Of a DNA stretch of 64,000 nucleotides, positions 22,441 to 44,197 are shown in pieces (within the stretch, counting starts at the first letter, position 1; each line of letters begins with the position of its first letter). Below the pieces are notes generated by a model. The model saw only the letters and a program-made list of their open reading frames with translations, made no database searches and was not told the origin of the DNA. Position numbers and translations under genes: made by a program. Origin of the DNA: Patescibacteria group bacterium (lineage in GTDB: Bacteria; Patescibacteriota; Patescibacteriia; UBA10025); the NCBI GenBank assembly GCA_042570925.1, contig JBHPFX010000003.1, positions 10,149-74,148 on the forward strand, read 5' to 3'.

Positions 22441-22573
22441 GTGCGGGATAGACTCTGGACTGAAAAATCCTGGAGCCTGTCCTGAACATTGCGCGGAGCG
22501 AAATGATTCAGGATCGGCAGTTTCCGCCAAAGGCGGATCCGCCCATGGCGGACAATTCTGCCCCTCGGCACCA
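22441..22573 (+). pseudogene. 3' part of the outer tRNA-Phe-like copy, with a 30-nt double-hairpin insert in the T loop
   Basis: GGACTGAAAAATCC anticodon arm, then GGCAG-TT, the 30-nt insert (22523-22552), then CAATTCTGCC-CCTCGGC-A-CCA. Confidence 0.5.
22523..22552. repeat. 30-nt G+C-rich double-hairpin insert (copy in the tRNA-Phe-like T loop)
   Basis: TCCGCCAAAGGCGGATCCGCCCATGGCGGA. The near-identical TCCGCCAGAGGCGGATCCGCCTTCGGCGGA lies at 42719-42748 inside nusA. Confidence 0.7.
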
Positions 22574-22658
22574 CGCGGCAGTAGTTTCCTTCATTTCATT
22601 CAGGACAGGCAGTTGGTAGTATGGTTTCAAAAAACTTTTAGATAATTTATTGGATAAT

Positions 22659-22733
22659 GCGGGAGTAGTTCAGTAGTAGAACGCTTCCTTGCCAAGGAAG
22701 AGGTCGCGGGTGCGAATCCCGTCTCCCGCTCCA
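22659..22733 (+). tRNA. tRNA-Gly (anticodon GCC), CCA encoded
   Basis: GCGGGAG acceptor, TTGCCAA loop, CTCCCGC-T-CCA. The T loop reads TGCGAAT, with G where U55 is expected. Confidence 0.75.
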
Positions 22734-22875
22734 TCAAGTCTTAAAGAAAAACATTCCTAGATTGATTTGCATGCTTAGCAAATTAAGCAGGAGGAAGCGA
22801 CGCAACTGCTTGCGTCGCGTCGGGATGAACAGGGCGAACGATGTCGCCTGAGGCGACCGTGAGCTTCGGCCCGAA

Positions 22876-22899
22876 GGGCGAGTCCGGTCTGCCGCTCCA
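22876..22899 (+). pseudogene. Duplicated tRNA-Gly(GCC) 3'-end fragment
   Basis: GGGCGAGTCCGGTCTGCCGCTCCA versus the tRNA GGGTGCGAATCCCGTCTCCCGCTCCA. G+C hairpins precede it. Confidence 0.45.
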
Positions 22900-23029
22900 T
22901 CGTGCCATATGTATATAGACCCCAAGATGGTGGGAGTTTGTTATAATAAATAAAGACGAGGCCGCCGTGGTGGAACCCCGCTTCTCCTTCACTGCGTTCA
23001 GGATACGCGGGGCAGGCTGGTAGAATTGT

Positions 23030-23113
23030 GGGCCAGTGGCGGAACTGGTATACGCGCTAGACTTAAAATCTGGTGGTGGCAACACCGTGTGGGTTCGACT
23101 CCCACCTGGCCCA
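23030..23113 (+). tRNA. tRNA-Leu (anticodon UAA), long variable arm
   Basis: GGGCCAG acceptor, CTTAAAA loop, GGTGGCAACACC variable arm, GTGGGTTCGACTCCCAC T arm, CTGGCCC-A. Confidence 0.85.
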
Positions 23114-23220
23114 TTAGCAAGAATAAGACTCTCGAAGCGAAGTCCTGAGCGTAGCGAAGGGCGAAGCGGAGATCCCGTCCTGAGTTTACCGAAGGACGGG
23201 ACGACCGGCGGCATATGACA

Positions 23221-23250
23221 AAAAGAGCGAGGTAGTTACTCGCTCTTTTT
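23221..23250. terminator. Bidirectional terminator between the tRNA array and the convergent gene
   Basis: AAAAAGAGCGAG-GTAGTTA-CTCGCTCTTTTT. Confidence 0.7.
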
Positions 23251-23265
23251 GCTTTGTCATTATAT

Positions 23266-23760
23266 TTAGAGGACTTCCAGTGTAGTATATCGCGCTCCCC
23301 ATTCAATTGCTTCTTCTCGTGACTCCATCCAGATGTCTGCCATGTACCAGTAGCGCTGATGCATCCGATCTTCGACGACGAATATTTTATCTCCGTAGTA
23401 TTCAGGAATTCGTACTCGAGTGCCAATTGGTAGGAAGTTGGCAGCGATAATTCCATCACGTACAGTGGACCCGGAAGCAGTTATGAATGGGTCTCCGCTT
23501 GTTTGATCCGGTGTTGAGGAGTAGGCAGTGATTGTGAGATACACAGTCTGCTTAGCTTCCTCACGGGGCTTATCAGCACTAATAGGAAGCCTCGGGCGGG
23601 TTTCAATATTTTCTTCAGTGATTGTTGGTTCAGCTTGAATGTTTCCTGTTTCAAGGATTTCATGACCCACTGCTTGTCCAGGAAAGGTGAATTCCCAGAG
23701 AAGGACGAGCGCAACGATTACTAGAATGTAGGCATTTTTTTGACGAGATAGTTTATACAT
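23266..23760 (-). CDS. 3D-domain (RlpA/MltA-like DPBB) cell-wall protein with N-terminal anchor
   Basis: TAYSSTPDQTSGDPFITASG..V.DGIIAAN.LPIGTRVRIP..G.....VEDR. ATG 23760 (MYKLSRQKNAY plus a TM segment) is preferred over the track start. Confidence 0.7.
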   Translation of the reverse strand: MYKLSRQKNAYILVIVALVLLWEFTFPGQAVGHEILETGNIQAEPTITEENIETRPRLPISADKPREEAKQTVYLTITAYSSTPDQTSGDPFITASGSTVRDGIIAANFLPIGTRVRIPEYYGDKIFVVEDRMHQRYWYMADIWMESREEAIEWGARYTTLEVL

Positions 23761-23942
23761 AATTAGTGAAATAGTTTGGTAATTAAGGTTTATTACTCTA
23801 TTCCAAAAACTCCCATTTAATAGGTTTTTGGGAGATTGAAAGCGCATATTAGCAGATATACGGGATCTGTCAAGGGCTTGATATGCTAACAAAAAACTGC
23901 CGCATTACGCGGCAGTTTGGGTTAATATCAGGATGGGAAACG

Positions 23943-26717
23943 TTACGTACCAAGAATATCGTCAATTACTTCAGCATAGCTGTCAAACGGTTGGGCACCT
24001 GAGATGAGCTCTCCATTAACAAACGTTGCGGGAGTCCCCTGTACACCAAGTAATGCGCCTCCGTCAATATCATCTTGAACTCTTTGTGAATATTTTCCAG
24101 AGTCTAAGCAGCTATCAAACTGACTTTGGGCTAATCCAAGTTCTCCTGCAGCGCTTTTATAATTTTCGACGCTTAATGTTACAGCTGCATTCATCTCAAA
24201 GAGCCTGTCATGCATTTCCCAGAATTGACCCTGTTCTGCGGCACACTCAGAAGCTTCAGCGGCTTTTTGGGCATTAGTGTGAAATGATAACGGGTAATGT
24301 CGAAAAACTATTTGAAGATCGTCCCCGTAGGTAGTTTCGAGTTGCTCGATTGTCGGAACAAATCTGGCACAAAAGGGGCATTCAAAATCAGAATATACCA
24401 CTAATGTCACTTTCGCATTTTCTCCACCTCGTTTGTGATCAGTGTCTTTTAAAGGTAGATAGTATGTCTCAGCTACCACAACCTCATTTGCTGAATTTGT
24501 ATTGCTCACCTGCTGGTCATCAGCAGCTTTTAAGGGATTGTGACCACTTTGTACTTCTTCAAAATCAGTAAATCCATCTCCATCTGTATCAGCGACATAC
24601 TTACTTGTTCCAAACTCTGCCTCTTCAACGTCAGATAATCCATCATTATCAGTGTCTTTATTTTCCTCAGCTTCGAGTGAAACATAATCCTTTGTTGCTG
24701 TATTTTTACCTTCAACATACAGGGAAGTATAGTAGCTATTGTTAGAGCCAAATATACTTTCCGTACTCTCAGGAGGGAATTCAATTTCATATATCAGCTT
24801 ATAATCAGTTCCAGTCGTAGAATACTCAAAAGGTTTTTCGGTATAAATGTCAGTTGGCACGCTCGAGCGAGAATAAAAGTAGCTGTCATAGAAGGAATCT
24901 TCTGGAGGAGTTTCGAGCAGCTTATCAAGACTAGCAGGGTATTTTTTATTAACAGAATTATATTGCCGAAGCGCTGATCGAATATCGCTGACCGCGTCTC
25001 TTTGTTTATCAAAATTCTGCTCTTCAACAGTAATGCCGGTCATTAATCGTATCACTTCATCAATAGAAATTGTATTGCTCGGCTTGGTCACGTTTGGTTT
25101 TTCGCCTAAATGATCGAACGTCATGCCAAAATTGAATCTGAACTGACGATCTACAAGTCTTTCATACTTATCTGGAGGTACGGCAATCATTTCAACTTCC
25201 ATCTTCCTGGGTTTGAATCCTGCCTGATCGACCCATACGGTCAATGTCGTATTCTCAAAAAATGTATCAAGCTGATCGATTACCTCTGGGTCTGAAAATG
25301 AATCAGTAAAGTCTCCGAAATCCCCCAAATCTACACCTCTCTCTACCGCATCATCGTAGTATGCTGATTCAAGTGCCTGAAGCTTTTCTGGATCGATAGT
25401 TATTCGAACACGATGTGTTGGGTGGCCGTTTATTGTTTCTTTTCCATCAACATTTGCGACAATGAGTTTTTCCTGAAAGGCAACTCGGAATATGTGTGGA
25501 ACCTCAGATCGGAAAGTGCTTGTTGTGTCATCATCCGGTATGACGTCATTTACATCTACGAATCCGCCAAGAAGATCACTACCCTCATCGAGATCGATTT
25601 CAATCCATTTGTCTTTAAATGAGCTGGTATCAAAAAAGAGAGCAGGAAATTCATTAGCAAGAAGATACGCCTTATTGTCCTTTAATCGTGCCTCTAAATC
25701 AACAGAAATTGCCACGCCAGAGGAGCTATACGATCCGGAGAGCGACATAAGCCCTTTATTTTCTGACGGGTCATCAGGTGAGTAATTCATAAACACGCTA
25801 ATTGCTCCCTGTACGTTGATGTCGGTTGGAATCATGCCGACTAATAGGTCCATATAATCATCATAGAAATCAGAAAATTCAGAACCACCATAATCTCTAT
25901 CGTATTCACAACTGGTAATATTACCATCAGAGTCTAATATTCCATTTGGTCCCTTATTATTTCCGCCGAGGCAAGAAAAGGAGAGCGTATACTCAGTTTT
26001 ATCACTTGAAGGTTTATATATAAACGATTCTCCATTAGCTTGCTTGGGAACGAAGCTAATGTAATTTGGCGATACTTCAGCCAAAGTATTTGGAAACTGA
26101 GATCTGTGATCATCCCAATATAGTATTAGTGCTGTCTTGATTTGAGCGGCATTTGATACAGTTGTTCTATCTTGTGCCTGAAGTTCAGCATCTGTAGTGC
26201 CCACAGCTGACTCATTATTATTTTTTGAGGTTGATTCAACCGTTCTTTCTTCACCGACTACTTGAAAAGTAAATCCAAACTCACCACTCTTTGCATCTGC
26301 TAATTCATTAAACGCTTTCATCAACATCTCTTCCGCGTTTTTTGTGAGAAATGGAATGGGTAAATAACCCTTCATGTATGCAAAAGCCCCTCCACCAATG
26401 ACAGCCACAGCAATAACTGCTACAACCATCCACTTAGAGAATTTAAAAGACTTTTTTCTCTTTTTACCAAGAGCGTCAGAGATGTATTCTTCTTTTGTAT
26501 GCCACGGCTTATGTGTTTCGGCTGTGTGAGATTGCCAAGGTTTCTTTTTTACTGGTTGAGAATCGGGATATTTTTGCTGTAATGGTGACGGGGGGGCGGC
26601 CAATACTTGATCAACTTGGTCTTTCGTCCATCCGCTTTTCTCGAGCTGCTTATGAATATCTTTATCTGATAAGCCTGATTCACGGGCCTGTTGGATCCAC
26701 TGTTTAATGTCGTTCAT
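23943..26717 (-). CDS. 924-aa membrane-anchored mosaic surface protein: N-terminal helical module, TM, two pilin-like domains, TSP3-type Ca-binding repeats and a C-terminal DsbA-like thioredoxin domain
   Basis: MNDIKQWIQQARESGLSDKDI module. Pilin-like segments (AAQIKTALILYWDDHRSQFPNTL, SDIRSALRQYNSVNKKYPASL). DTDNDGLSDVEE..DTDGDGFTDFEE. SDFECPFCARF..GTPATFVNG. Confidence 0.7.
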   Translation of the reverse strand: MNDIKQWIQQARESGLSDKDIHKQLEKSGWTKDQVDQVLAAPPSPLQQKYPDSQPVKKKPWQSHTAETHKPWHTKEEYISDALGKKRKKSFKFSKWMVVAVIAVAVIGGGAFAYMKGYLPIPFLTKNAEEMLMKAFNELADAKSGEFGFTFQVVGEERTVESTSKNNNESAVGTTDAELQAQDRTTVSNAAQIKTALILYWDDHRSQFPNTLAEVSPNYISFVPKQANGESFIYKPSSDKTEYTLSFSCLGGNNKGPNGILDSDGNITSCEYDRDYGGSEFSDFYDDYMDLLVGMIPTDINVQGAISVFMNYSPDDPSENKGLMSLSGSYSSSGVAISVDLEARLKDNKAYLLANEFPALFFDTSSFKDKWIEIDLDEGSDLLGGFVDVNDVIPDDDTTSTFRSEVPHIFRVAFQEKLIVANVDGKETINGHPTHRVRITIDPEKLQALESAYYDDAVERGVDLGDFGDFTDSFSDPEVIDQLDTFFENTTLTVWVDQAGFKPRKMEVEMIAVPPDKYERLVDRQFRFNFGMTFDHLGEKPNVTKPSNTISIDEVIRLMTGITVEEQNFDKQRDAVSDIRSALRQYNSVNKKYPASLDKLLETPPEDSFYDSYFYSRSSVPTDIYTEKPFEYSTTGTDYKLIYEIEFPPESTESIFGSNNSYYTSLYVEGKNTATKDYVSLEAEENKDTDNDGLSDVEEAEFGTSKYVADTDGDGFTDFEEVQSGHNPLKAADDQQVSNTNSANEVVVAETYYLPLKDTDHKRGGENAKVTLVVYSDFECPFCARFVPTIEQLETTYGDDLQIVFRHYPLSFHTNAQKAAEASECAAEQGQFWEMHDRLFEMNAAVTLSVENYKSAAGELGLAQSQFDSCLDSGKYSQRVQDDIDGGALLGVQGTPATFVNGELISGAQPFDSYAEVIDDILGT

Positions 26718-26738
26718 GGTTAAATACTAGTTAATTAT

Positions 26739-28103
26739 TTAAGGCCAGACTTCACAAGTATGACCTGCGCTGTCCGAATTATAACAGAGTGACCAGCCCT
26801 TTCTATCTTCAGTGGGGGCGTACTCATATATCTCACCCGTCTCCGGATCTGTAAGCAGGGAGTTTAAATACGATGGTACAAGCTCCTCAAGAGTGGCCGG
26901 ATAGATCTCGTTATCCAGGAAATATTCCTGCAAAGTTATCTGGGTGCCGTAAATGTCGATGCTTCGAGTGACATCATTACGCTCCGATTCGTCGTAAATG
27001 AGATTTTCCTTCTCAATTAAAAAATATTGATACTGCAATTTGGCAAACTCAATTCCCTCGCGCGTAATTTTATTTGGTTGTAAGAAATTATCATATTCCC
27101 CGGTGATAATTGCCTTACCACCAGCAAGCCCAAACAGCATAAGCGCAAATATACCCACCATCATAAAACCAATAACAATTTTTCTTCCCACTTCAAGTGT
27201 TGACTCAGGATCGCTCTTATACGGGTGGGCGACAGAAAGGTCCGCATATAATACTGAGTAATAAGATTGTATATATGGAGGAATAATCAGTAGTAGAAGA
27301 AACTGTGAAAGCAAAAATCCTAGTCCGCCTGAAACAAAGAGAAAAAATGACAGTTCACCCGTACTCACATTGGCGACAAAAAGCCAAAATGCAACAAGAA
27401 TGAGACCAAGAATGAATGTGATGAACGCAACGATACCGACAAGCATTACTACTTTCCAGAAGATATCCAATCGGAAGTCGCGGGTAATTGCATAACACCG
27501 TTTTAACGCGGAAAATCCAGATTTTCCTTCTTTCACCATAACGAATGGAAGCGGTATGAATAGTACTGCGAGAATTAGACCAGGGAATATAAACAAAATA
27601 AATCCGCCAATCATGGCGAGGCCAGCTAATATGCTCGTCCAGATGAATGGAAGATACAGTTTGCATGAATTACTAAATATTTTTCTAGTGGATTTTTCAG
27701 AATATACAAGACTATGTGTTATTCCAATGATAAAAAAAGCTCCTGCAAGGTAGATGACGAACAACATGAGCAAGTAGAGTACCAGTGTAGATGGCCAGAT
27801 CGAAAAGAGAATTTGAATCCCGATGATGATGACGGTGCTTATCAGCGCAAGTAAGAGAAGTGGTCCCCAGAGAGACGAGAATACTTTCCAGGATCGTAAT
27901 AGCAATTGATGGCCAACGATAAATTTTTCTGGTGGATTTTCTTTTACTTCAGGGATATTAGAAAGCTCCTGGGAAATATCCAGGGCATCGTGTATTTGAG
28001 TTTTGCTCCAGCCATCTGCGGACAGGCGATTCTCAATTTCTCCATCAGAAATTCCTTTCTCACGAAATTGCTTAACCTGTTCAAAGATGTTTATGTCAGG
28101 CAT
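26739..28103 (-). CDS. Multi-pass membrane protein with the same N-terminal helical module and a C-terminal pilin-like domain
   Basis: FEQVKQFREKGISDGEIENRLSADGWSKTQIHDAL, about 7 TM segments, then TQITLQEYFLDNEIYPATLEELVPSYLNSLLTDPETGEIYEY. Confidence 0.6.
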   Translation of the reverse strand: MPDINIFEQVKQFREKGISDGEIENRLSADGWSKTQIHDALDISQELSNIPEVKENPPEKFIVGHQLLLRSWKVFSSLWGPLLLLALISTVIIIGIQILFSIWPSTLVLYLLMLFVIYLAGAFFIIGITHSLVYSEKSTRKIFSNSCKLYLPFIWTSILAGLAMIGGFILFIFPGLILAVLFIPLPFVMVKEGKSGFSALKRCYAITRDFRLDIFWKVVMLVGIVAFITFILGLILVAFWLFVANVSTGELSFFLFVSGGLGFLLSQFLLLLIIPPYIQSYYSVLYADLSVAHPYKSDPESTLEVGRKIVIGFMMVGIFALMLFGLAGGKAIITGEYDNFLQPNKITREGIEFAKLQYQYFLIEKENLIYDESERNDVTRSIDIYGTQITLQEYFLDNEIYPATLEELVPSYLNSLLTDPETGEIYEYAPTEDRKGWSLCYNSDSAGHTCEVWP

Positions 28104-28184
28104 ACAACCTTTTTTTGTTTTTACATAATAAATATATCATAAAACAGGCCATTTGTCAATGTAATCGCCTTCTAACAGATACAC

Positions 28185-28946
28185 TTATAATTCAACAACT
28201 ACCGGATAGTGATCCGATGCCAAGTTAGTTATCTTATTTTTTATAACCTTGTAGGACTGTAAAAATGGTAGTAATGACTTTGAAAGAAATATGTAGTCAA
28301 GTCGCATTGGTGAATGCTTAGTGCCGACTTTGGATAATGTTGGTACTGTCGTGTCTATGTTCTTTTCCAATAGTTGTGCTGTGTCGTGGTATCCAGCTTT
28401 CAGAATTTTATCAATAATATCAAACCGTAATTTTCCATTTGTAGTGAATTTTCTTATTCGAATTTCATCAAAGTCCTTTATGATATTATCCTTGTACCCA
28501 TCATTTCTCGACAAGGAATTCATATCTCCCATGAGAATCTTATGCGAAAAAGGTTTTTGATACGCAATGATACTCTCAATCTCCGGTTGACGAAGATCTT
28601 CAGTATATGGCGTTAAATGAAGGCTCGCAATTGATATTGGGCCATAGATGGACTCGATTGTAGCTATTATACACGCACGAGCCAAGGGTTTGAGCATGTA
28701 AATATTCTTTAAGGGATATTTTGAAAAAACGGCTATATGCCAATCTCCCTCACCTGATAAGGATATTTTAAAATACGGAAAACCGGTTTTTACGGCGAAT
28801 TCCTTAAGTAGCGCATTATTATTTTTTGCAAACGTATTTGCTTCATTAAGCATTAAAAAATCCGGGGACTCTTTTTTTACTACCTCAATAATTTGAGGGA
28901 GTGTCTCCACAGCCCCGTTTAAAATATTGTACGTCATGAATTTCAT
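28185..28946 (-). CDS. Endonuclease/exonuclease/phosphatase (EEP) family protein
   Basis: TYNILNG, LMLNEAN, GDMNS and SDHYPVVVEL motifs. Confidence 0.75.
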   Translation of the reverse strand: MKFMTYNILNGAVETLPQIIEVVKKESPDFLMLNEANTFAKNNNALLKEFAVKTGFPYFKISLSGEGDWHIAVFSKYPLKNIYMLKPLARACIIATIESIYGPISIASLHLTPYTEDLRQPEIESIIAYQKPFSHKILMGDMNSLSRNDGYKDNIIKDFDEIRIRKFTTNGKLRFDIIDKILKAGYHDTAQLLEKNIDTTVPTLSKVGTKHSPMRLDYIFLSKSLLPFLQSYKVIKNKITNLASDHYPVVVEL

Positions 28947-28968
28947 ATAACTTGTGTGATTGGCTCTT

Positions 28969-28979
28969 TGGAGCGGGTA
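28969..28979 (-). pseudogene. Duplicated 3' end of tRNA-Gly(UCC), followed by a G+C-rich tract
   Basis: TGGAGCGGGTA is identical to the tRNA 3' end at 29161-29171. G+C-rich hairpins lie between the two (28980-29100). Confidence 0.45.
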
Positions 28980-29039
28980 GGACCCCGCTATCCAGCGGGA
29001 TCTCGCAATTATATTTCTTATTGAGCTCGAGAATCGAGT

Positions 29040-29085
29040 TCTGGGCGCCCTTCGGTCTGAGGACCTCAGGATCGAAGACTTCGTT
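29040..29085. repeat. G+C-rich palindromic element copy
   Basis: CCCTTCGGTCTGAGGACCTCAGGATCGAAGACTTCG, related to the 18241-18317 core. Confidence 0.45.
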
Positions 29086-29160
29086 CACTCGCGCCGTTCA
29101 ATTCCAGGTATTGTATGTGTAAATCGATGCTCACAAGTTTGAAAGTGAAATCGAACTATT

Positions 29161-29235
29161 TGGAGCGGGTAACGGGAATCGAACCCGTATCTTCAGGTTG
29201 GAAACCTGACATAATAGCCATTATACTATACCCGC
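29161..29235 (-). tRNA. tRNA-Gly (anticodon UCC), CCA encoded
   Basis: The reverse complement reads GCGGGTA..TTTCCAA..ACGGGTTCGATTCCCGT-TACCCGC-T-CCA. Same architecture as E. coli tRNA-Gly2. Confidence 0.9.
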
Positions 29236-29248
29236 TTGAGATGTAGCA

Positions 29249-29572
29249 TTAAGGTTGCCACAAAAACTTGTCGAGGTCAATCCAGAAATTGTTTTCTCGT
29301 TTAATTACTTTTACCCCATCCTTTTGTAAGAGTACAGATTGTTCTTCTGCCGGATGGTCAAGGCATGTAGTGCTTATTCTTCCTTCTCGATTTATTACTC
29401 TCTGCCAAGGAATGTGTTCCAATTTACCCCCATCCATCGCGTGCATGGCCCAGCCGACCATCCGAGCTGACCTCGGTGATCCGATAAGAGCGGCAATTTG
29501 GCCATACGTAGCAACCCTGCCTTTTGGGATTTTTTTGACCATATCGTAAACTTTTTGATAAAAATTTGGCAT
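29249..29572 (-). CDS. Alkyltransferase-like (ATL) protein of the MGMT DNA-binding family, lacking the acceptor Cys
   Basis: KIPKGRVATYGQIAALIGSPRSARMVGWAM..IPWQRVI. PWQRV replaces the PCHRV active site. Confidence 0.75.
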   Translation of the reverse strand: MPNFYQKVYDMVKKIPKGRVATYGQIAALIGSPRSARMVGWAMHAMDGGKLEHIPWQRVINREGRISTTCLDHPAEEQSVLLQKDGVKVIKRENNFWIDLDKFLWQP

Positions 29573-29575
29573 GTA

Positions 29576-30565
29576 CTATTTCTCAAACTTTATGAAATAT
29601 TCTTTCGGTTTGAGCTCCTCTTTAACAATCTTTTTCCACTGAGGATTGATATCGGAGACACGCTTTATCTTTTCTTCATGATAGCAAAGCGGATCAACTG
29701 CTCGAGATTTTACAAACACATGAGCATCAAAATCTGAGGGGGAATTTTTGTACTTAATTTTATTATTCATACGATCCCAAAAAGACTGTGCCTTAGTATC
29801 GTTTGAGAGGAAAGGCGCAATTTTGTTTAATACTATTTGATCAGTGGTATATAAATCTTGTTCCACAATGTATCCCATTGTTATTGCATGTGCTATGTAG
29901 TCTCCGACTGTTTGAAACATGACCCCAGACCCCATATCAGCCCAGTAGCCCTTATTAAGCTCATAAAAAAGCTTGGCAAACGTAGCCGCATGGGTGTACT
30001 GAGAAAATATCCACTGATTATCCTTAACAGTAAGATGAGTAAGGAGGTTTTGAGCCTCTTGTATAGAAAAATCATATTCTTCATATGCGATTCCATCTCT
30101 TAGTGCATAATCGATACGATCAGCGCATAGATCCGGTATATTATTTTCTTTTAAAGGGAAATGGGAATCATTCAGTATATGGTCAAGATCAAAATGGTAT
30201 TTTGATAGTATAGAAGGAATATCTGTTTTTCTAATGTAATTGTTAAAAATGCTGTCCTGATGATTTTGTGTTTTTTCAGTTCCCTGCTTGAGTATGTAGT
30301 CAATGCCGTGCGAAAAAGCAGAATGAGATGCATCATGAATTAATCCGGAAATTTGCTCATCAATAGCTGCGCCGTATTTTTTTAATAACAGCATCACACC
30401 CACTGAATGTTGAAATCGATTTGGAGAAATGCCCGGGTGAAAAGGTTTACGAAAAGCTCCTTGTTCGACACCTTTTAAACGTTGGAGGGCGGGGCTGTTG
30501 GTAATTTCAACGAGTACTGGTTCGGTGATCTCTATTTTCCCATAGATTTGGTCCTGATAGTGCAT
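29576..30565 (-). CDS. HD-domain phosphohydrolase
   Basis: RFQHSVGV..GLIHDASHSAFSH (the H..HD..H pattern). Confidence 0.7.
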   Translation of the reverse strand: MHYQDQIYGKIEITEPVLVEITNSPALQRLKGVEQGAFRKPFHPGISPNRFQHSVGVMLLLKKYGAAIDEQISGLIHDASHSAFSHGIDYILKQGTEKTQNHQDSIFNNYIRKTDIPSILSKYHFDLDHILNDSHFPLKENNIPDLCADRIDYALRDGIAYEEYDFSIQEAQNLLTHLTVKDNQWIFSQYTHAATFAKLFYELNKGYWADMGSGVMFQTVGDYIAHAITMGYIVEQDLYTTDQIVLNKIAPFLSNDTKAQSFWDRMNNKIKYKNSPSDFDAHVFVKSRAVDPLCYHEEKIKRVSDINPQWKKIVKEELKPKEYFIKFEK

Positions 30566-31477: not shown

Positions 31478-31560
31478 TCGGGATGCCCGGACTCGCCCTG
31501 CGGGCCTGGGTGCTGCGCTCGCTCGCACCTCTCGAGTCAAATCTCCCAACCTAAACTCAA
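31478..31560 (-). pseudogene. tRNA-Pro 3'-half copy with a G+C-rich insert at the T loop
   Basis: In RNA sense: TTGGGAG..CTCGAGAGGT, the insert GCGAGCGAGCGCAGCACCCAGGCCCGCAGGG, then CGAGTCCGGGCATCCCGA. Confidence 0.5.
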
Positions 31561-31596: not shown

Positions 31597-31634
31597 TCGG
31601 GATGCCCGGACTCGAACCGGGGACCTCTCGCTCC
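31597..31634 (-). pseudogene. Exact copy of the tRNA-Pro 3' half (38 nt)
   Basis: TCGGGATGCCCGGACTCGAACCGGGGACCTCTCGCTCC is identical to 31683-31720. Confidence 0.6.
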
Positions 31635-31682
31635 TGTTCAGCCCGAGCCACATAATAGCCAATAAAATAATCCTGCGCTGAG

Positions 31683-31756
31683 TCGGGATGCCCGGACTCG
31701 AACCGGGGACCTCTCGCTCCCAAAGCGAGCGTTCTAGCCAACTGAACTACATCCCG
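31683..31756 (-). tRNA. tRNA-Pro (anticodon UGG)
   Basis: The reverse complement reads CGGGATG-TA-GTTCAGTTGGCTAGAAC-G-CTCGC-TTTGGGA-GCGAG..CCCGGTTCGAGTCCGGG-CATCCCG-A. Confidence 0.9.
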
Positions 31757-35014: not shown

Positions 35015-35018
35015 GATA

Positions 35019-35873: not shown

Positions 35874-35881
35874 GGGGATAA

Positions 35882-37168: not shown

Positions 37169-37170
37169 GG

Positions 37171-38622
37171 TTATTCTTTCGGGCGGTTATCAATAATCCG
37201 TTTTTCCTTAAGCTCTGTTTCCATGCCAAGCTGTTGGAGAAGTTGGTCAAGGGGGCGCTGCACCATATCGACGTTAACCATAATTTCATTATGGATTTTT
37301 CTGGCAACCATTTCTTTTATGCTATCGAAATCTTGACCTTGCTTCGGACAGATATATAAGACTAATTCATCAAGGCCATACGGATCATTATCCTTTTTCT
37401 TGATTTCCAGCTGCCATTCCTCAATTTCAGACATACCGGAAAGAAGAGGAAAGAACTGATTCAAATTCACTAACTCACCTTTTACTTTTGTCAGACGAAA
37501 CTCTTTGAATTCCGATGAGCGTTGAAGGTCAGGCAGAATTCGTGGAACCGTTCGTCCACAATGAACACAGGGGCCATACTCGATCCCTTGAGTCATATCA
37601 CCTGTTTTATAGCGAATCACAATTGTTCCACGCCAATCGAGCGCGGTATAGACCAATTCTCCGGGATGTCCGTCTGGAACGCGCTTTCCTTCCTTATCGA
37701 CAACCTCGAAATAGCCAATATCCGGGTAAATATGATACCCCTCACTCTCATGACACTGGATCCAGGCCGTTTTTCCTTCGGTAAATGCATAGGTAACGAA
37801 TATCTGCAGATCTTTTGTACCCATTTCTTTGCAAAGTTCTTTCACTTTATCCCGCAGGCCCGGGCTTGCTCGCTCGCCGCCGAAAATAATATATTTCAGA
37901 TTTTCCAGATTCCTTCCTTCTTTGCGTGCTGTACGGAGTAAGTGATAGATATAGCCAGGAATTCCGAGCAGAAGCCCACCTTTCATCCTCTCAAGTCCGT
38001 CAAGAATTTTCTGTGTACCTGATATTTTTCCTCCCCCTGTTTGCAATGAAGTCAAACCGACTGTAGTGAGACCGAAAAATGCAAGCCAAAAGGCAAGATG
38101 GGGGGCGTAAGGAAACGCATTAATTGCTACAATGTCATTTGGGATACCGATGACGTTGAACATTCTCTTCGCACTTTCTTTCAGCGTTTCAATATCGCGC
38201 GCTGAATAAGCAAAGGGGGTGGGGAGCGCCGTTCTGCCCGTTGTGAAATGAATATGAATGGGCTTATATTCCCACTCGAGTTTTGGCTTTGGGTCTTGGC
38301 CGGTAAGCTTTTTAACTATTAGCCCAGCCAATCTTCCCGGAGATGAATGTTTTTTCAGGAGTTTTTCATCTGGTTGAAGAATGAACTGACGGGGCTTGGC
38401 GGGATCTTCTTGTGTCGGCGCCAGGTCGGTTTTTGTGGTAAATGGAATTTTTGCCAAGTCATCGGTTGTCTGGATATCCTTAAAATTGATATTATGCTTC
38501 TTAAACAGTTCTCGATAATACGGTGAAAAAGGCGCCTCATAGCGCATGAGATGCTTAATTTTTTGGTTTTGGACCTCCTGTATTTCCTCCTGAGATAAAT
38601 GAGAAAGTTCTGACCATTCCAT
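37171..38622 (-). CDS. Adenylate-forming ligase of the PaaK / F390-synthetase type
   Basis: FTTGRT (P-loop-like), YGP.E.. pattern, and size and order typical of phenylacetate-CoA ligase-like enzymes. Substrate unknown. Confidence 0.6.
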   Translation of the reverse strand: MEWSELSHLSQEEIQEVQNQKIKHLMRYEAPFSPYYRELFKKHNINFKDIQTTDDLAKIPFTTKTDLAPTQEDPAKPRQFILQPDEKLLKKHSSPGRLAGLIVKKLTGQDPKPKLEWEYKPIHIHFTTGRTALPTPFAYSARDIETLKESAKRMFNVIGIPNDIVAINAFPYAPHLAFWLAFFGLTTVGLTSLQTGGGKISGTQKILDGLERMKGGLLLGIPGYIYHLLRTARKEGRNLENLKYIIFGGERASPGLRDKVKELCKEMGTKDLQIFVTYAFTEGKTAWIQCHESEGYHIYPDIGYFEVVDKEGKRVPDGHPGELVYTALDWRGTIVIRYKTGDMTQGIEYGPCVHCGRTVPRILPDLQRSSEFKEFRLTKVKGELVNLNQFFPLLSGMSEIEEWQLEIKKKDNDPYGLDELVLYICPKQGQDFDSIKEMVARKIHNEIMVNVDMVQRPLDQLLQQLGMETELKEKRIIDNRPKE

Positions 38623-38642
38623 ATAAAAATTTTCTTAGTGAA

Positions 38643-39269
38643 TTATTTACTTAATTCTAGGACACGATTAATAATTTGCGAGGTAAGATCCCGAAGCAGT
38701 TCATGAGTGATCGGCTTATCGTATGCCTCAGGGAATGTCATCGGTTCTCCAATAGTTATTCGAAGATAGTGCGGGTTGGTTAAATGTTTTACGATAATGC
38801 TTTTTAACCTTCTTGACTGATGATTGTAAAGGCCCACAGGTATTACTGGCACTTTTGACCAAAGTGCTAAACGTGCCACTCCCGTCTTACCGCGATTATT
38901 ATCCATATCACTTTCTTCAAGGATACCACCTGGAAAAATGCCCACAATGCGCCCTTTGTGTAAGTACTTATTGGCAACGTTCAGGCACTGCTGACGATTG
39001 TTTGAATCGAATGGAATACATCCTCCCCACCATTCAGCCACAATCTTTTTCCATAGCCAGCCCCAGGGGGCTATGCGGGTGATAAAGCGAATTTTACGGT
39101 TTATTTTATTTATCACTGCTGCGGCGATGAATGCGCCGTCGAGCGGACTCGTATGATGACACGCAAGAATAAAAGGACCCTTATAAGGAATATACTCTAG
39201 TCCGCTTACTGACCTAGTATAAAAACGAAGTAGCGGGAGAAGAGTGAATCGGGAAATTGGATATGCCAT
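38643..39269 (-). CDS. PlsC-family acyltransferase, tandem paralog 1
   Basis: HHTSPLDG (H.x4.D), GIFPGG, GKTGVARLAL. About half the residues are identical to the next gene by eye. Confidence 0.75.
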   Translation of the reverse strand: MAYPISRFTLLPLLRFYTRSVSGLEYIPYKGPFILACHHTSPLDGAFIAAAVINKINRKIRFITRIAPWGWLWKKIVAEWWGGCIPFDSNNRQQCLNVANKYLHKGRIVGIFPGGILEESDMDNNRGKTGVARLALWSKVPVIPVGLYNHQSRRLKSIIVKHLTNPHYLRITIGEPMTFPEAYDKPITHELLRDLTSQIINRVLELSK

Positions 39270-39301
39270 TAAGAGTTTGTTTACAGCGATTGAGTTATAA
39301 T

Positions 39302-39931
39302 CTACTTTGCGCTTAGTTCTTCAAGGCGATTAACGACGCGCCTGGTAACTTCTCTTAGTAAGTCATGTGTGATCGGTTTGTTGTAAGCGTCAGGAAATGT
39401 CATTGGTTGGCCGATAGTAATCCGCATGTTATGAGGATTCATGAGATGTTTAATAATCATTGCTCCCCGCTTAACAACATGGAAATTATGGAGTCCTACG
39501 GGAATGACCGGCATCTGAGACCATAATGCAAGTCGGGCGACGCCCGTTTTACCTCTTTTGCGCATCTTGTCGGATTCCTGTAAAAGACCGCTCGGGAAAA
39601 TTCCCACTATCTCCCCTTTTTTCAAATACTCCATTGCAGTTTCAAGACATTTACTTGGATTTGTTTTGTCGAATTGGATTGATCCCGCCCATCGCTCAAA
39701 TATTGGCTTTTTCCAGAACCACCCTCTTTTTCGAACATTTGAGATAAAGTGTAGCTTTCTTTTAACTTTTGAAATTATTACCGATGCTATAAAAATACCA
39801 TCAAGCGTTCCAGTATGTTTGCATGCAATGATATAGGATCCTTCCTTCGGGATGTTTTCAAGTCCTGAAATAGAGCGTATAAAAAACTTCAGAAAACGGG
39901 GTATAAAATGGCGCGCAATCGGATAGGCCAT
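39302..39931 (-). CDS. PlsC-family acyltransferase, tandem paralog 2
   Basis: KHTGTLDG, GIFPSG, GKTGVARLAL. Confidence 0.75.
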   Translation of the reverse strand: MAYPIARHFIPRFLKFFIRSISGLENIPKEGSYIIACKHTGTLDGIFIASVIISKVKRKLHFISNVRKRGWFWKKPIFERWAGSIQFDKTNPSKCLETAMEYLKKGEIVGIFPSGLLQESDKMRKRGKTGVARLALWSQMPVIPVGLHNFHVVKRGAMIIKHLMNPHNMRITIGQPMTFPDAYNKPITHDLLREVTRRVVNRLEELSAK

Positions 39932-39940
39932 ATCGTTATA

Positions 39941-40570
39941 TTAGAATGTATACGGCTTTCCGCTTAGTGTGCTAATAGCTTTCATAATTCTGCCAGTGAC
40001 TTCGTGCAGTAGTTCCCCAGTAATTGGCCGGTTATAGTATTCTTCAAGGGAGATTGACTCACCAATACGGATATGGAATTTTTTTTTCTGAAAGAAGTAA
40101 ATCCATGATCGAATAGCACTTCTTGTCGCTGGGCCGGTAATTCCAATCGGAATAACGGGAGTTTTTGTCCATAGTGCTAATCTTGCTGCACCGGTTTTCC
40201 CTCTCAGAAGTTCTGCATGTATATTTCGGGATCCTTCGGGATATAGGACGCATATCTCTCCTTTTTCCAAATGACGTTGTAAATGCTTCAGGGCTGATGC
40301 GGGCGAATTTCTTTCAACAAACGTCGTACCGGTCCATTGACCAAGCTTCCGACCTCCGGGAAATCTCCAATACTCTCCAAAAGACATGAAATGCAGTGAT
40401 CGCTTTAATTTTGTATACAGTACCCCGAAAAGGACTAGCGGATCGAAATAACTAATGTGATTTGGGACGAGTAATGCAGGTCCATGAACGGGCAGGTTTT
40501 CAAAACCCTCGATATTCTCAACTCTACTTGCTGCCCACGAACTTAACGTTTGGACCAGGCGCTGTCCCAT
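39941..40570 (-). CDS. PlsC-family acyltransferase, tandem paralog 3 (more divergent)
   Basis: NHISYFDP, LYPEGSR, GKTGAARLAL. Confidence 0.75.
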   Translation of the reverse strand: MGQRLVQTLSSWAASRVENIEGFENLPVHGPALLVPNHISYFDPLVLFGVLYTKLKRSLHFMSFGEYWRFPGGRKLGQWTGTTFVERNSPASALKHLQRHLEKGEICVLYPEGSRNIHAELLRGKTGAARLALWTKTPVIPIGITGPATRSAIRSWIYFFQKKKFHIRIGESISLEEYYNRPITGELLHEVTGRIMKAISTLSGKPYTF

Positions 40571-40575
40571 ACGTT

Positions 40576-42570
40576 CTAGATGATTAATCCTACAATAAGT
40601 AATGCAACAATATTTAACACCTTTATCATCGGATTCATTGCCGGGCCAGCCGTGTCCTTGTATGGATCACCTACTGTATCTCCCGTAATAGCAGCTTGAT
40701 GAGCAAGAGATCCTTTGCCCCCAAAATTTCCGTCCTCAATATACTTTTTTGCATTGTCCCATGCTCCGCCACCTGAAGTCATTGAAATAGCTACAAAAAT
40801 TCCAGAAATGATGCTTCCTACGAGCAATCCCCCAAGTGCGATGGGGCCGAGAATAAGACCAACTGCAATAGGTGCTGCTACCGGAACCAGTGCGGGGATT
40901 ATCATTTCTCTGATTGCTCCCTTGGTAACAATATCAACTGCACGGCCATATTCGGGCTTTGCTTTTCCTTCCATAATACCGGGGATCTCTTTGAACTGGC
41001 GCCTGACCTCATGAACAACTTTTTGAGCAACTTTCCCGACTGCTTCCATTGCTCTTGCACCAAAATAATATGGCAGGAGAGCGCCGATAAAAAGACCAAT
41101 CAATACCAGTGGATCAGAAAGTGAAAAAAGATATTCTTTTCCGCGATCAACTAATTCCTGTGTATATGAAGCGAATAATACAATTGCGGCGAGGCCAGCG
41201 GATCCTATCGCGTACCCTTTTGTAACTGCTTTGGTGGTATTGCCGACTGCATCAAGTGGATCGGTAACTTCTCGTACACTTTCAGGAAGTCCTGCTGATT
41301 CTGCGATTCCTCCCGCATTGTCAGTAATGGGTCCATAGGCGTCGATAGTAACGATAATACCCGTTAGTGAAAGCATACTCATTGCTGCGACGGCAATACC
41401 ATACAATTCAGCAAGCTGATAAGCACCATATATACCAGCGGCGATAACGATGACCGGAAGGACAGTAGATTTCATGCTCACCGCTAGTCCGGTAATAATA
41501 TTAGTCCCGTGCCCGGTAGTTGAACTTTCTGCAATTGATTTTACGGGCTTATATTTTGAAGAGGTAAAGTACTCAGTAATTACGACCAGAAGAGCAGTAA
41601 CGACGAGGCCGACTAATGCCGAAAGGAAAATATCCAATGTCGAAAATTGGCCATTGTCACTCATCAACCATTGTGTTGCCCACCAGAAGCCGATTGCAGC
41701 CAGTACACCTGAACCAAGCAGGCCCTTATACAGAGCGCCCATAATATTTTTACTTTTTCCAAGCCGAATAAAGAAAAGACTGATAATAGATGCAACGATT
41801 GATATGGCACCAAGCATGAGTGGAAATAAAATGACATTTTCTGATCCTTGGAAGGTAAGCGCACCGAGAATCATGGCTGCAATTGCTGTAACGGCATATG
41901 TTTCAAATAAATCAGCGGCCATTCCTGCGCAATCTCCTACGTTATCGCCGACATTATCAGCAATAAAAGCCGGATTTCGCGGGTCGTCTTCTGGAATTCC
42001 TGCTTCAAGCTTACCCACTAAATCAGCACCAACATCGGCCGCTTTTGTATAAATACCACCACCAAGCCGGGCGAATATCGAAATTAAACTCGCACCAAAT
42101 CCAAGTCCAATTAGTGCATCAATATCTTGAAAAATTGCATAAAAGCCGGTAACAGCAATAAGTCCCAAGCCAACAACAAAGAAGCCGGTAACAGCTCCTC
42201 CGCGTGTTGCAAGTGAAAGAGCTGATGCTAAACCATTTTTTGCGGCTTCAGCTGTTCTGACATTTGCTCGGACTGATACCATCATTCCGATAAATCCCGC
42301 GGCACCGGAAAATAATGCGCCAATAAAAAATCCAAGTGCAATTACGATTCCCAGCCACCACCAGAGCACAACAAACAATATGGCCGCAATTATTCCGATA
42401 GTGCGATATTGCCGAAACAGATATGCTTTTGCACCTTCCTGAATCGCTTGAGCGATTGCCTGCATTTTATCGTCTCCGCTGGGTTTTGAGAGTACCCATC
42501 GAGTGAGGATGATTGCGAAGATCAGGGCGGCGAGGCCACTAAGAAGGGAAATGGTATATACGAGAGACAT
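40576..42570 (-). CDS. hppA: Membrane-bound proton-translocating pyrophosphatase, K+-independent type
   Basis: [36 protein letters not shown] and [12 protein letters not shown]. The Lys in GNTTKA marks K+-independent enzymes. Confidence 0.9.
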
Positions 42571-42595
42571 ATATTGGTTTATATGTTATTAATTC

Positions 42596-44197
42596 TTATT
42601 TAGCATCCTCTGAAGATTTTTCTGACTTATCTTCATCAGAAGCTGCCTTGGTTTTTTTAGTTTTTGGCTCCTTATCCTCTTTTTCTTTAATAACTGCTTT
42701 ATTCTCTTTTACCTCTTTTCCGCCAGAGGCGGATCCGCCTTCGGCGGACTTTTCCTCTTTTTCAGGTTTGTTGTTTTCTTTATCAGTTTCTGTCTCTGAT
42801 ACCGTCTTTGACCCGAGGGGCTTCAGGCCCGATTGGGAGGTCTCAGATCGAAGGGAATCACCAGGCTGAGCGGGGTCTGCTGTAAGCTTCGTGCTTTCCG
42901 GGGATGCAGAAGATTCCTTCAGGTCTTTTTCATCGGTAGATTCTTTATCTTCTTTGGCTGGTTCTTCTTTCGGTTTTTGTGCCGCGGGCTTAGTACCTCC
43001 TTCACCGACAATATCAATTTTCCAACCCGTCAGTTTCGCTGATAACCGGACATTTTGACCGGCTTTTCCGATAGCCAAGGAAAGCTGGTCTTCTTTAACC
43101 TCTGCAAGAGCAGTTTTTTCAGCTTCATTAGTTTTAACGCTTAATACTTTTGCAGGTGATAAAGCGTTACTGATAAATATCTCCGAATCATCGGCCCATT
43201 CAATTATATCAATCTTTTCTCCACCGAGCTCGGTGATAATAGTTTGCACTCGACTTCCTCGCTGTCCAACACACGACCCAACAGGATCGATATTGCTTTG
43301 GTGAGCGACGACAGCTACTTTTGATCTGGCACCGGCTTCTCTAGCCACAGATTTAATCTCCACGGAGCCATTATTAATTTCAGGTACTTCAATAGTAAAC
43401 AGTTTGCGGACCATTTCAGCGTGAGAGCGGGAAATAATTATTTCCGGTCCTTTCGGAGTTTTATTAACTGCTACAACAAAAAATTTCATCCTCTGACCGG
43501 GTCGATAGCGTTCATTTGGAATTTGTTCCGGAGGTGGCAGGAGGGCTGCAGTGCGGCCAAGATCAATGATCACCATCTTTCCTTCAATACGCTGGACCGT
43601 TCCATTGATCAGTTGCCCCTCTTTGTCTTTGAATTCCGTATAGATGGTTTCTCGCTCGGCTTCTCGTAATCGTTGAATAATGACCTGTTTTGCAGTTTGA
43701 GCAGCCATTCGGCCATATGCAGCAGGTGGAAATAATTCAGTTTTAATTTCATCTCCAACTTTTGATCCTTTCTTCATTTTTTTCGCTTCAGCAAGCCCAA
43801 CTTCTTTTTTAGGATCAAAGCGGTCTTCCTTCTCATCCTCTCCTTCTTCTGATGACTGATCCTTACCTTTCTTTATTTCCTCTTTCTTTTTAACTTCCTT
43901 TTCTTCCTTACCTTCCTTTTCTTCCGCCTGCTCTTTCTCGCGACGTTTCTCACGTTCCGCCATAAGCTTTTCATAACGTTTTACTTTTTCGTCATCTACA
44001 ACTGCTTTAATATCAAAAACACGAGCCTGGGCTGTTTCTGCGTCAAACTCAACATGAATATTTTGATTTTTTTCTCCAAAGTCTTTTCGATAAGCTACGG
44101 CAAGCGCTGCTTCAATGGTTTCAACCACTGCTTCCATTGAAATGTTCTTTTCCTCCGTAATTTGCTTCATTGCTTGATATATTGACGATTGCGCCAT
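42596..44197 (-). CDS. nusA: Transcription termination/antitermination factor NusA, with a Lys/Glu-rich insertion and a long low-complexity tail
   Basis: N-terminal domain (AIEAALAVAYRK), S1 (GTVQRIEGKMVIIDLG) and KH1/KH2 (AVVA.....DPVGSCVGQRGSRV; AIGKAGQNVRLSAKLTGWKIDI). The tail contains two G+C-rich inserts. Confidence 0.85.
   Translation of the reverse strand: MAQSSIYQAMKQITEEKNISMEAVVETIEAALAVAYRKDFGEKNQNIHVEFDAETAQARVFDIKAVVDDEKVKRYEKLMAEREKRREKEQAEEKEGKEEKEVKKKEEIKKGKDQSSEEGEDEKEDRFDPKKEVGLAEAKKMKKGSKVGDEIKTELFPPAAYGRMAAQTAKQVIIQRLREAERETIYTEFKDKEGQLINGTVQRIEGKMVIIDLGRTAALLPPPEQIPNERYRPGQRMKFFVVAVNKTPKGPEIIISRSHAEMVRKLFTIEVPEINNGSVEIKSVAREAGARSKVAVVAHQSNIDPVGSCVGQRGSRVQTIITELGGEKIDIIEWADDSEIFISNALSPAKVLSVKTNEAEKTALAEVKEDQLSLAIGKAGQNVRLSAKLTGWKIDIVGEGGTKPAAQKPKEEPAKEDKESTDEKDLKESSASPESTKLTADPAQPGDSLRSETSQSGLKPLGSKTVSETETDKENNKPEKEEKSAEGGSASGGKEVKENKAVIKEKEDKEPKTKKTKAASDEDKSEKSSEDAK
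42719..42748. repeat. 30-nt G+C-rich double-hairpin insert, in frame in nusA (encodes SAEGGSASGG)
   Basis: TCCGCCAGAGGCGGATCCGCCTTCGGCGGA. The stems are identical to 22523-22552 and only loop bases differ. 30 nt equals 10 codons, and I checked the frame against the ORF coordinates. Confidence 0.7.
42810..42855. repeat. G+C-rich palindromic element copy inside the nusA tail
   Basis: GACCCGAGGGGCTTCAGGCCCGATTGGGAGGTCTCAGATCGAAGGG aligns with the rpsP insert core, on the same + strand text although the two genes are on opposite strands. Confidence 0.6.

Follow-up and report, generated by a model that had tools for sequence, protein, structure and literature searches.

A 30-nt double hairpin in Patescibacteria and other bacteria known from metagenomes, very probably a miniature palindromic insertion element filtered by reading frame

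We describe a 30-nt double hairpin that occurs twice within a 64-kb stretch of DNA (the window, 64,000 nt) from a Patescibacteria bacterium whose NusA relatives place it near Kerfeldbacteria. One copy (TCCGCCAAAGGCGGATCCGCCCATGGCGGA) interrupts the T loop of a decayed tRNA-Phe duplicate, and the other (TCCGCCAGAGGCGGATCCGCCTTCGGCGGA) lies in frame in the tail of nusA (Table 1). All 24 stem bases are identical between the two copies, and the differences are confined to the two 3-nt loops, as the original prediction for this DNA had stated. The full double-hairpin pattern is matched twice in the window, against 0.00 times in 100 dinucleotide-preserving shuffles, and the half-motif CCGCC-N3-GGCGG five times against an expectation of 0 from shuffled controls, the fifth match being a single related hairpin next to a tRNA-His remnant. 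Nor is the motif unique to the window: a scan of one genome per species (596 Gb) found at least 120 loci, where 24 fixed bases would be calculated to match about 0.002 times by chance. We consider it very probable that the 30-mer is a miniature non-coding palindromic insertion element, mobile or insertional, whose copies are filtered by reading frame.

Evidence for insertion comes from genes that have close relatives with an empty site. In nusA, the insert had been predicted to form ten in-frame minus-strand codons, SAEGGSASGG, inside a Lys/Glu-rich tail, and the reading of the open reading frame (ORF) agrees. The closest NusA relative (P0002, locus L121; 81% by BLASTP and 84% in alignment) has the same tail without precisely these ten residues, and the corresponding gap in the DNA is exactly 30 nt (...GAGGAAAAG[30]AAAGAGGTA...). 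A more distant relative (P0022, L122) carries a decayed copy at the same site, TCCGCtCAAGGCGGAcTCGCCTCTGGaGGg. A similar comparison can be made for a Kaiserbacteria atpD gene (L093), in which the element follows the residues VDVRF (CGTTTC[30 nt]AAC); in the closest relative found for this AtpD (P0121, L206; 89%) the DNA reads CGTTTC^GAC, again with a gap of exactly 30 nt. Another AtpD (P0185) has PAQGGSASGR where L093 has its insert, apparently the remains of a decayed copy. Relative to solved structures, the AtpD and TsaD inserts correspond to gaps of 9–10 residues. Target-site duplication was absent at every usable empty-site comparison, that is at nusA, atpD and the four tRNA T loops described below, all of which are exact 30-nt indels. 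We conclude that the 30-mer enters DNA as an exact 30-nt unit, without target duplication where an empty site can be compared, and that copies decay after insertion.

Other insertions are found in the same two genes. A second in-frame indel, of 93 nt, distinguishes the nusA tail from that of its closest relative. It encodes LTADPAQPGDSLRSETSQSGLKPLGSKTVSE, has a higher G+C content than the DNA around it and includes a 28-nt core, CCCGAGGGGCTTCAGGCCCGATTGGGAG, that is present at two other places in the window; it probably belongs to another family of elements that insert in frame. In the L093 atpD gene, a different in-frame double hairpin of 39 nt, TCC-GGAGGAGACACCTCC-ACG-GGAGGAGTCACCTCC-GGA, lies ~50 nt downstream of the 30-nt element; it encodes SGGDTSTGGVTSG and is absent from L206. 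Several other AtpD relatives have unrelated inserts in the loop after VDVRF (e.g. ...DSGQA..., PSTGSGQA), and this loop appears to be an insertion hot spot.

The first copy in the window lies within the remains of a tRNA gene. The 137 nt downstream of the intact tRNA-Phe align to that tRNA with two insertions, a 40-nt hairpin and the 30-mer, the latter between GTT and CAATTC. The predicted position, between T55 and C56 of a tRNA-Phe-like copy, is therefore correct; the host, however, is a dead partial duplicate and not a working tRNA, since ARAGORN finds no tRNA in this interval even with both insertions removed. We also rejected the 30-mer as a tRNA intron, of either the group I or the bulge-helix-bulge type, because ARAGORN finds no tRNA across any junction after removal of the insert.

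The same architecture is shared by four copies (window/Phe, L047/Ile, L084/Ser and L102/Pro). Each has an intact tRNA gene, a spacer of 1–55 nt and then a partial duplicate that retains at least the T arm and the 3' acceptor strand, with the element in its T loop at 55/56 or 56/57; all four T-loop hosts are thus partial duplicates adjoining an intact gene. The T loop of the L084 remnant (GGGTTC[30 nt]AAATCCC) is that of the adjacent intact tRNA except for the insert, and the window, L047 and L102 remnants show a few differences from the intact tRNA and have the same insert. In each of L113 and L201 (the latter with a stem variant) a further double hairpin interrupts the anticodon loop of a displaced 5' piece of tRNA-Glu, at TTTT^CA. 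The simplest reading is that tRNA loops hold a preferred target and that only dead duplicates can retain the insert.

Partial tRNA duplicates are present in the window beside tRNA-Phe, tRNA-Pro and tRNA-His. Those of tRNA-Pro match it with 66% and 100% identity, respectively, over 38 nt. The tRNA-His gene is followed by a 3'-half remnant and by seven copies of a module of ~80 nt, each composed of the tRNA-His 3' end CCGATAG(C/G)GACC, then a hairpin, then a terminator-like stem. The modules are 0.5–2 kb apart in DNA of 33–35% GC, the ORFs between them have no significant Pfam match, and Pfam scans of this low-GC region (53–62 kb) revealed no recombinase or transposase. The region looks like an array of small cassettes, or of repeated integrations at tRNA-His.

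Table 1. Positions of the features of the window that are discussed in the text.
Feature	Position	Strand	Remarks
28-nt core of the 93-nt indel, recurrences	18273-18300; 46405-46432		
16S gene	20124-21615		followed by tRNA-Ile, Phe, Gly, Leu
Short motif YCCTTCGACTTCGCTCAGGRY	22098-22118	-	
Short motif YCCTTCGACTTCGCTCAGGRY, further copies	52938-52958; 58417; 60248		
Intact tRNA-Phe(GAA)	22366..22438	+	reference that defines the empty T-loop site
Decayed tRNA-Phe duplicate	22439..22575	+	hosts element copy 1; D arm missing, acceptor not paired, CCA at the end
Second, unrelated 40-nt hairpin insertion	22472..22511	+	variable region of the same tRNA remnant; TCCTGAACATT...AATGATTCAGGA
Element copy 1	22523..22552	.	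loops AAA / CAT; between T55 and C56 of the T-loop remnant, GGCAGTT^CAATTCTGCC
tRNA-Pro, partial duplicates	31478-31515; 31597-31634		
tRNA-Pro	31682-31756	-	
nusA	42596..44197	-	ORF of 533 aa; host gene of element copy 2
Element copy 2	42719..42748	.	minus-strand coding read TCCGCCGAAGGCGGATCCGCCTCTGGCGGA = SAEGGSASGG, in frame, nusA tail
93-nt in-frame indel	42794-42886	-	nusA tail
tRNA-His	53033-53107		
Region with seven ~80-nt modules	53108-61072		
Single related hairpin CCCGCCGTAGGCGGG	53182..53196	.	compensated outer pair; fifth CCGCC-N3-GGCGG match; beside tRNA-His 3' remnant
Heliorhodopsin gene	62688-63479	-	Pfam PF18761, E = 3e-99

The anatomy of the element was then deduced from 124–127 copies. 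Two 15-nt hairpins abut in inverted orientation, TCCGCC-RRA-GGCGGA followed by TCCGCC-TYY-GGCGGA. Loop 1 has A as its third base and loop 2 opens with T, each in >90% of copies, and these two bases are complementary in 115 of 124. Because the RRA/TYY rule is equally valid in non-coding copies, it must be a property of the element and not of the protein. At the middle loop positions the preferred combinations are A with C, or G with T; these are mutual reverse complements, and the element therefore has a weak orientation, with the consensus RAA / TCY. As single-stranded DNA, the minimum-energy fold on each strand is the pair of 6-bp hairpins (-12.5 kcal/mol, z -3.9 to -4.9), and as RNA the predicted optimum is not the double hairpin, but one long hairpin closed by GAUC (-19.5 to -20.9 kcal/mol). 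A single long palindrome was rejected as the selected form: perfect 30-nt palindromes are slightly over-represented (24 vs 16.1 ± 3.5 expected), and the middle loop positions are complementary less often than by chance.

Stems can vary. A mismatch search that did not require pairing gave near-copies with compensated stem changes (CCCTCC/GGAGGG in L052, CCCGCC/GGCGGG in L090), together with copies carrying unpaired changes. Further stems (CCACCC/GGGTGG, TCAGCC/GGCTGA, TCACGC/GCGTGA, CCCTGC/GCAGGG) came from a search that required pairing within the halves and covered the element loci and an independent 328-kb sample, in which the canonical form was only one of six double hairpins. The two halves often differ in stem. 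This fits a two-hairpin form better than one long hairpin, although the evidence is weak and not independent, because the search itself required pairing within each half.

The sequences that flank the element follow the consensus tTT(T/C)^(A/C/G)AAa; 86% of copies have T at -2, and 76% have A at +2. The preference is symmetric; after copies are oriented by their loops, T at -2 is found in 74% and A at +2 in 90%. We attribute these bases to the target and not to the element, because T54-T55-C56-A57-A58 is native to the T loops and the TTC Phe codon is native to atpD. The element thus prefers the centre of TT(T/C)^(A/G/C)AA, a sequence that is also that of tRNA T loops and of the tRNA-Glu anticodon loop. 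For an IS608-type 'guide' pairing between flank and loop, one of 36 tests was nominally significant (p = 0.0026) and the mirror-image test failed (p = 0.17); we therefore rejected such pairing, having found no covariation of this type.

Within genes, the element is found overwhelmingly in one reading frame. An ORF of at least 150 codons spans 63% of copies, compared with 83% of random positions. Of 80 copies within ORFs, 70 are read in the frame TCC GCC NNN GGC GGA ... (SAxGGSAxGG), the three frames being split 70:6:4, and the coding copies have the 30-nt length; the check suggested earlier, whether lengths of coding copies are divisible by three, came out in favour of the original interpretation. 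No frame of the 30-mer has an obligatory stop, the other two reading PPxADPPxA and RxxRIRxxR, and the bias is therefore best read as a survival filter in which only the Ser/Ala/Gly version is tolerated. Purifying selection after insertion would then generate the bias, since only one of the three open frames would give a small flexible linker. The variable positions of the peptide, read on the coding strand, hold mainly K/E/R/G and S, and the excess of S over F (41 to 13) is a further sign of filtering at the protein level. Typically the insert is preceded by F and followed by K (...F-SAxGGSAxGG-K...). The hosts are unrelated, and include AtpD, TsaD, AspRS, a ValRS-like protein, PheT, a CysRS-like protein, the G/F region of DnaJ, the UvrC N-terminus, a MurC-like protein, glycosyltransferases and the sorting tails of type IX secretion system (T9SS) substrates; in these proteins the inserts sit in surface loops or tails. 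Other copies are in DNA without function, for example dead tRNA fragments or hairpins between genes.

The distribution among hosts and positions bears on whether the 30-mer moves at all, because it might instead be a functional nucleic-acid signal (for instance one bound by a dimeric protein, or a hairpin with a regulatory or structural role) that is vertically inherited and kept by selection. Two Ignavibacteria T9SS tails with only 40% protein identity have the element at a homologous position, with 24 of 24 stem bases the same and DNA that is otherwise highly diverged, which could mean that a hot spot was hit repeatedly or that the stems are constrained. A dyad symmetry typical of dimer binding sites, and loop rules that hold in non-coding copies, would also suit a conserved signal. 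Presence and absence between close relatives do not, and neither do copies in the surface loops or tails of unrelated housekeeping proteins, copies in dead tRNA fragments, decayed copies or the lack of any consistent position relative to genes. We regard such a signal as highly improbable.

The host range is broad. Among the matches listed, to which all these distribution figures refer, about 63 loci are from MAGs (metagenome-assembled genomes) that their depositors label as Patescibacteria lineages; 11 carry the third-party label 'Gammaproteobacteria', 11 are unclassified 'bacterium', 10 are Omnitrophota, eight are Kiritimatiellae, Lentisphaerae or Verrucomicrobiota, four are Planctomycetes, four are Ignavibacteria, one is Bacteroidota and eight belong to other phyla. 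Thus the 'unrelated lineage' of the original prediction is right in so far as the window comes from a Patescibacteria bacterium near Kerfeldbacteria, but the element is not limited to one lineage, and the same stems occur in MAGs labelled as many phyla. Phylum labels on short contigs may reflect mis-binning; 1.6-Mb Ignavibacteriota and Ignavibacteriales contigs also carry the element (L029, L072). A phage vector was rejected, as 2.9 million viral contigs contained merely two matches. Neither the motif nor the phenomenon was found described in a literature search that used the sequence and keywords.

All 120 loci listed are from MAGs, with no isolate among them, and a few copies lie at contig ends (L003, L045, L112), as might be expected if the element were an artefact of assembly, library construction or contamination. 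Against this, the record names point to several assemblers and many depositors, megabase-sized contigs (0.7–1.6 Mb) are among the matches listed, and the variable loops, compensated stem variants, decayed copies, strong reading-frame bias and insertion-site consensus are not what an artefact would produce. We give this explanation next to no chance.

A second small repeat may also be common to several phyla. The short motif YCCTTCGACTTCGCTCAGGRY has four copies in the window and occurs in L004, L005, L050, L047 and L110, some of these MAGs being labelled as other phyla (Kiritimatiellae, Planctomycetia); the L004 copy directly adjoins a single TCCGCC hairpin.

We favour hairpin-guided single-strand transposition as the means of movement because the element is an exact unit, leaves no duplication, consists of two identical hairpins, uses a short symmetric target and is cleanly absent from close relatives. 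Both strands would fold into two hairpins when single-stranded, and a trans-acting enzyme might recognize the paired hairpins and act by single-strand cut-or-copy-and-paste, like the tyrosine HUH transposases of IS200/IS605 or the transposases associated with repetitive extragenic palindromes (REPs), RAYTs, for which a role in mobilizing REP doublets (REPINs) has been proposed. Such chemistry would leave no duplication and would allow precise loss. The complete account, a mini-element with a frame filter and hairpin-guided single-strand movement, seems to us evenly poised between right and wrong, and the narrower proposal that HUH-type enzymology moves the element is rather doubtful.

Several observations weigh against this account. 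Our survey of neighbourhoods, which covered 120 loci of up to 8 kb, found no mobilizing enzyme: no gene family recurs beside the element, the best being present in six of 120 loci. Just two HUH-type genes were found in the 1.29 Mb searched for them by tblastn, with IS200 and RayT queries giving one match each, and a cognate RAYT gene flanked by repeats was not found in any of the loci. The family with the most neighbours is a small GIY-YIG nuclease, and 80 independent GIY-YIG loci showed no clear excess of double hairpins, with three within 400 nt where about one was expected. We saw no more than 1–4 canonical copies per MAG, unlike REPs, and for stems to be identical across phyla, either horizontal transfer must be repeated or the recogniser conserved. 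IS200/IS605 elements are cleaved some way from their hairpins and have a target motif on the left (5') side only, whereas here the junctions are at the feet of the hairpins and both flanks are conserved. Finally, direct repeats of 6–9 nt abut ~15% of copies, compared with 3% of control TT^NAA sites. They usually fall within heptamer arrays, such as (AAAAGTC)n, (GAAGATT)n and (AAATCTT)n, which a hairpin-transposition model does not predict. The arrays continue on both sides of intergenic or N-terminal copies (L059, L036, L061, L060, L103, L104, L034) and therefore give rise to apparent 7-nt direct repeats. None of the models that we considered explains these repeats and heptamers; slippage next to a hairpin, or footprints of repeated visits, are possible.

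The direct repeats also bear on a classical cut-and-paste origin, in which the two 15-mers would be the abutted terminal inverted repeats of a DDE transposon, as in a MITE (a miniature transposable element with inverted repeats), and insertion would duplicate the target. The element is formally two inverted 15-mers, and the excess of abutting repeats, as in AAAAGTC[E]AAAAGTC (L061, where E is the element) and AGGATTT[E]AGGATTT (L034), could be taken for such duplications. The repeats, however, vary in length and lie within pre-existing heptamer arrays, where a fixed length would be expected; a 7–8-bp duplication would break the reading frame, yet most copies are in frame in genes; and the insertions at nusA, atpD and the four T loops are exactly 30 nt with no duplication. 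This origin is largely refuted, and we hold it to be extremely improbable.

The GIY-YIG genes invite a different explanation, namely that a site-specific nuclease, such as a free-standing GIY-YIG or HNH homing endonuclease, cuts TTN^NAA-like sites and that the break is then repaired with a hairpin pair templated by another copy or by the element of the nuclease itself. The small GIY-YIG nuclease (~95 aa, Pfam PF01541) is the best recurrent neighbour, indeed the only one, and tblastn detects it at seven of 120 loci. The element is upstream of its start codon by 219 nt in L002, by 32 nt in L026 and by 27 nt in L113, and a stem variant by 13 nt in L201; the nuclease genes occur at tRNA genes, where element-bearing remnants are also found. 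We nevertheless rejected this nuclease as mobilizer and consider break repair improbable. The excess near GIY-YIG genes in the independent sample is small; inverted repeats unrelated to the element, such as CCCCCACACC/GGTGTGGGGG, bracket the nuclease genes; the adjacent elements lie in the anticodon loop of a displaced tRNA-Glu fragment (TTTT^CA), simply a good target in dead DNA; and the window has the element, but no GIY-YIG gene. We conclude that their proximity reflects co-residence in tRNA remnants, without a functional link.

As observations in their own right, the GIY-YIG ORFs (~85–100 aa; L126–L205, L002, L026, L027, L054, L071, L113, L119) have inverted repeats of 12–20 bp, e.g. ACCCCCACACC... 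/ ...GGTGTGGGGGT, and at least 14 of 80 are within ~30 nt of a tRNA gene, some with a duplicated upstream tRNA 5' fragment or overlapping the tRNA 5' end. The flanks of L132 and L203 resemble 16S rRNA, by eye only. These genes look like separate, free-standing homing-endonuclease elements that target tRNA and rRNA genes.

A more serious rival to hairpin-guided transposition is copy-choice without any dedicated enzyme. Here the hairpins would stall replication, and the nascent TTT end would mispair with the AAA...TTT flanks of a resident copy at another locus, copy the 30 nt and switch back, a form of microhomology template switching. This would account for the lack of target duplication, for a short, symmetric and degenerate 'target' consensus that is the same as the sequence beside copies already present, and for the low copy number per genome and the failure to find an associated enzyme. 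Some copies within one genome share longer flanks (AATCTTT[E]..ATCTTTC twice in L103, GATTTTT[E]AAAAA twice in L056), and the tandem heptamer duplications beside some copies resemble slippage next to a hairpin. On the other hand, a microhomology of three bases is scant for a switch from one locus to a distant one, most pairs from the same genome lack extended shared flanks (the window pair, L015, L022), and neither the RRA/TYY loops nor the identical stems in many phyla are explained. Although we take template switching seriously, we believe it to be unlikely.

The 30-mer can be compared with several known systems. It had been likened to the Rickettsia palindromic elements (RPEs), reportedly described by Ogata and colleagues in 2000. 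RPEs are palindromic selfish repeats of ~100–150 bp found in frame in protein genes, some of them essential, as well as in RNA genes and intergenic DNA; they are tolerated as surface peptides, they are limited to Rickettsia and close relatives, and their frame restriction results partly from stops in other frames. We know of no enzyme that mobilizes them. The likeness is supported by the palindromic, stably folding repeat (as DNA and as RNA), by in-frame insertions that are indels relative to orthologues (nusA, atpD, tsaD) and by copies in tRNA remnants, but it is limited to behaviour: the element is 30 nt long and open in all frames, its length and consensus are not those of RPEs, and its hosts are Patescibacteria and other phyla, not Rickettsiales.

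In construction it is closer to REPINs, inverted doublets of REPs for which a RAYT dimer acting in trans has been proposed to recognize a two-hairpin 'clover' form (PMC3116915). Like a REPIN, the element is an inverted doublet of short palindromic units, distinguished by their RRA and TYY loops, and can be folded as one long hairpin or as a two-hairpin clover. REPs, however, are extragenic, high-copy and genome-specific, have GTAG or CGTC heads and flank their own RAYT gene, whereas at least 55% of element copies are inside ORFs (AtpD, TsaD, AspRS, ValRS, PheT, DnaJ), and the units start with TCCGCC between TTT and AAA flanks, with no tetranucleotide head and no spacer between them. The element therefore behaves like an RPE and is built like a minimal REPIN, yet lacks defining features of both families.

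With IS200/IS605 and its palindrome-only derivatives (PATEs) the element shares hairpins at both ends, sequence-specific insertion without target duplication and the possibility of precise excision. It differs in that no Y1 transposase with matching end hairpins was found in the DNA searched; the single IS200-like element found (L066) has end hairpins, CCACTGG/CCAGTGG and CCACCAGC/GCTGGTGG, that are unrelated to it, and we rejected an IS200 or RAYT transposase acting in cis. The small dispersed repeats (SDRs) of cyanobacteria, said to have been reported by Elhai and colleagues in 2008 as hairpin-forming sequences of 21–27 nt, argued to be mobile and specific to Nostocales, offer a lead only: their size under 30 nt and their hairpins are alike, and their sequences and host range differ. 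Yeast and fungal mitochondria contain GC clusters, double-hairpin elements and 'byp' elements, which are short G+C-rich hairpin inserts in A+T-rich compact genomes, some of them in coding sequence; byp elements are skipped by the ribosome. These are organellar and have different sequences. For the 30-mer plain translation would suffice and bypassing would be unnecessary, because the insert is a multiple of three in an open and benign frame. We view it as a miniature palindromic insertion element able to reside in frame in genes, and distinctive in its 30-nt size, in the exactness of its boundaries and in having the same stems in MAGs that bear the labels of many phyla.

Two further features of the window lie outside this comparison. 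At about 22000–24000, next to the 16S gene and the tRNA cluster, the GC skew changes sign and gene orientation switches from plus to minus, a pattern expected at a replication terminus; no Rfam match to 23S rRNA was found within the window. A heliorhodopsin gene lies at the edge of the low-GC region.

The element is unusually well suited to studies of how the shortest palindromic repeats, such as the Rickettsia elements, REPs and cyanobacterial SDRs, move and persist. Its 30-nt boundaries are exact, its target (TTY^RAA) is defined, it leaves no duplication, empty sites are clear, and public metagenomes hold independent insertions by the hundred. In practical terms, the motif accounts for odd SAxGGSAxGG segments and broken tRNA-like sequences in annotation, and could mark recent DNA exchange between co-occurring lineages. 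A process at the DNA level equips proteins that are essential to reduced genomes, among them NusA, DnaJ, the beta subunit of ATP synthase and both tRNA-modification and aminoacyl-tRNA enzymes, with identical 10-residue inserts, and these bear on alignments, phylogenies and structure prediction for candidate-phyla proteins. We tentatively suggest that the 30-nt double hairpins form a family among the smallest mobile DNA, of which TCCGCC/GGCGGA would be the most protein-compatible member, moved by an unrecognized hairpin-specific activity or a conserved host enzyme, crossing phyla among co-resident uncultivated bacteria and writing flexible linkers into essential proteins. If a cross-phylum hairpin family is indeed mobile, it would be both a transposition substrate of a new kind and an origin of indels in proteins.

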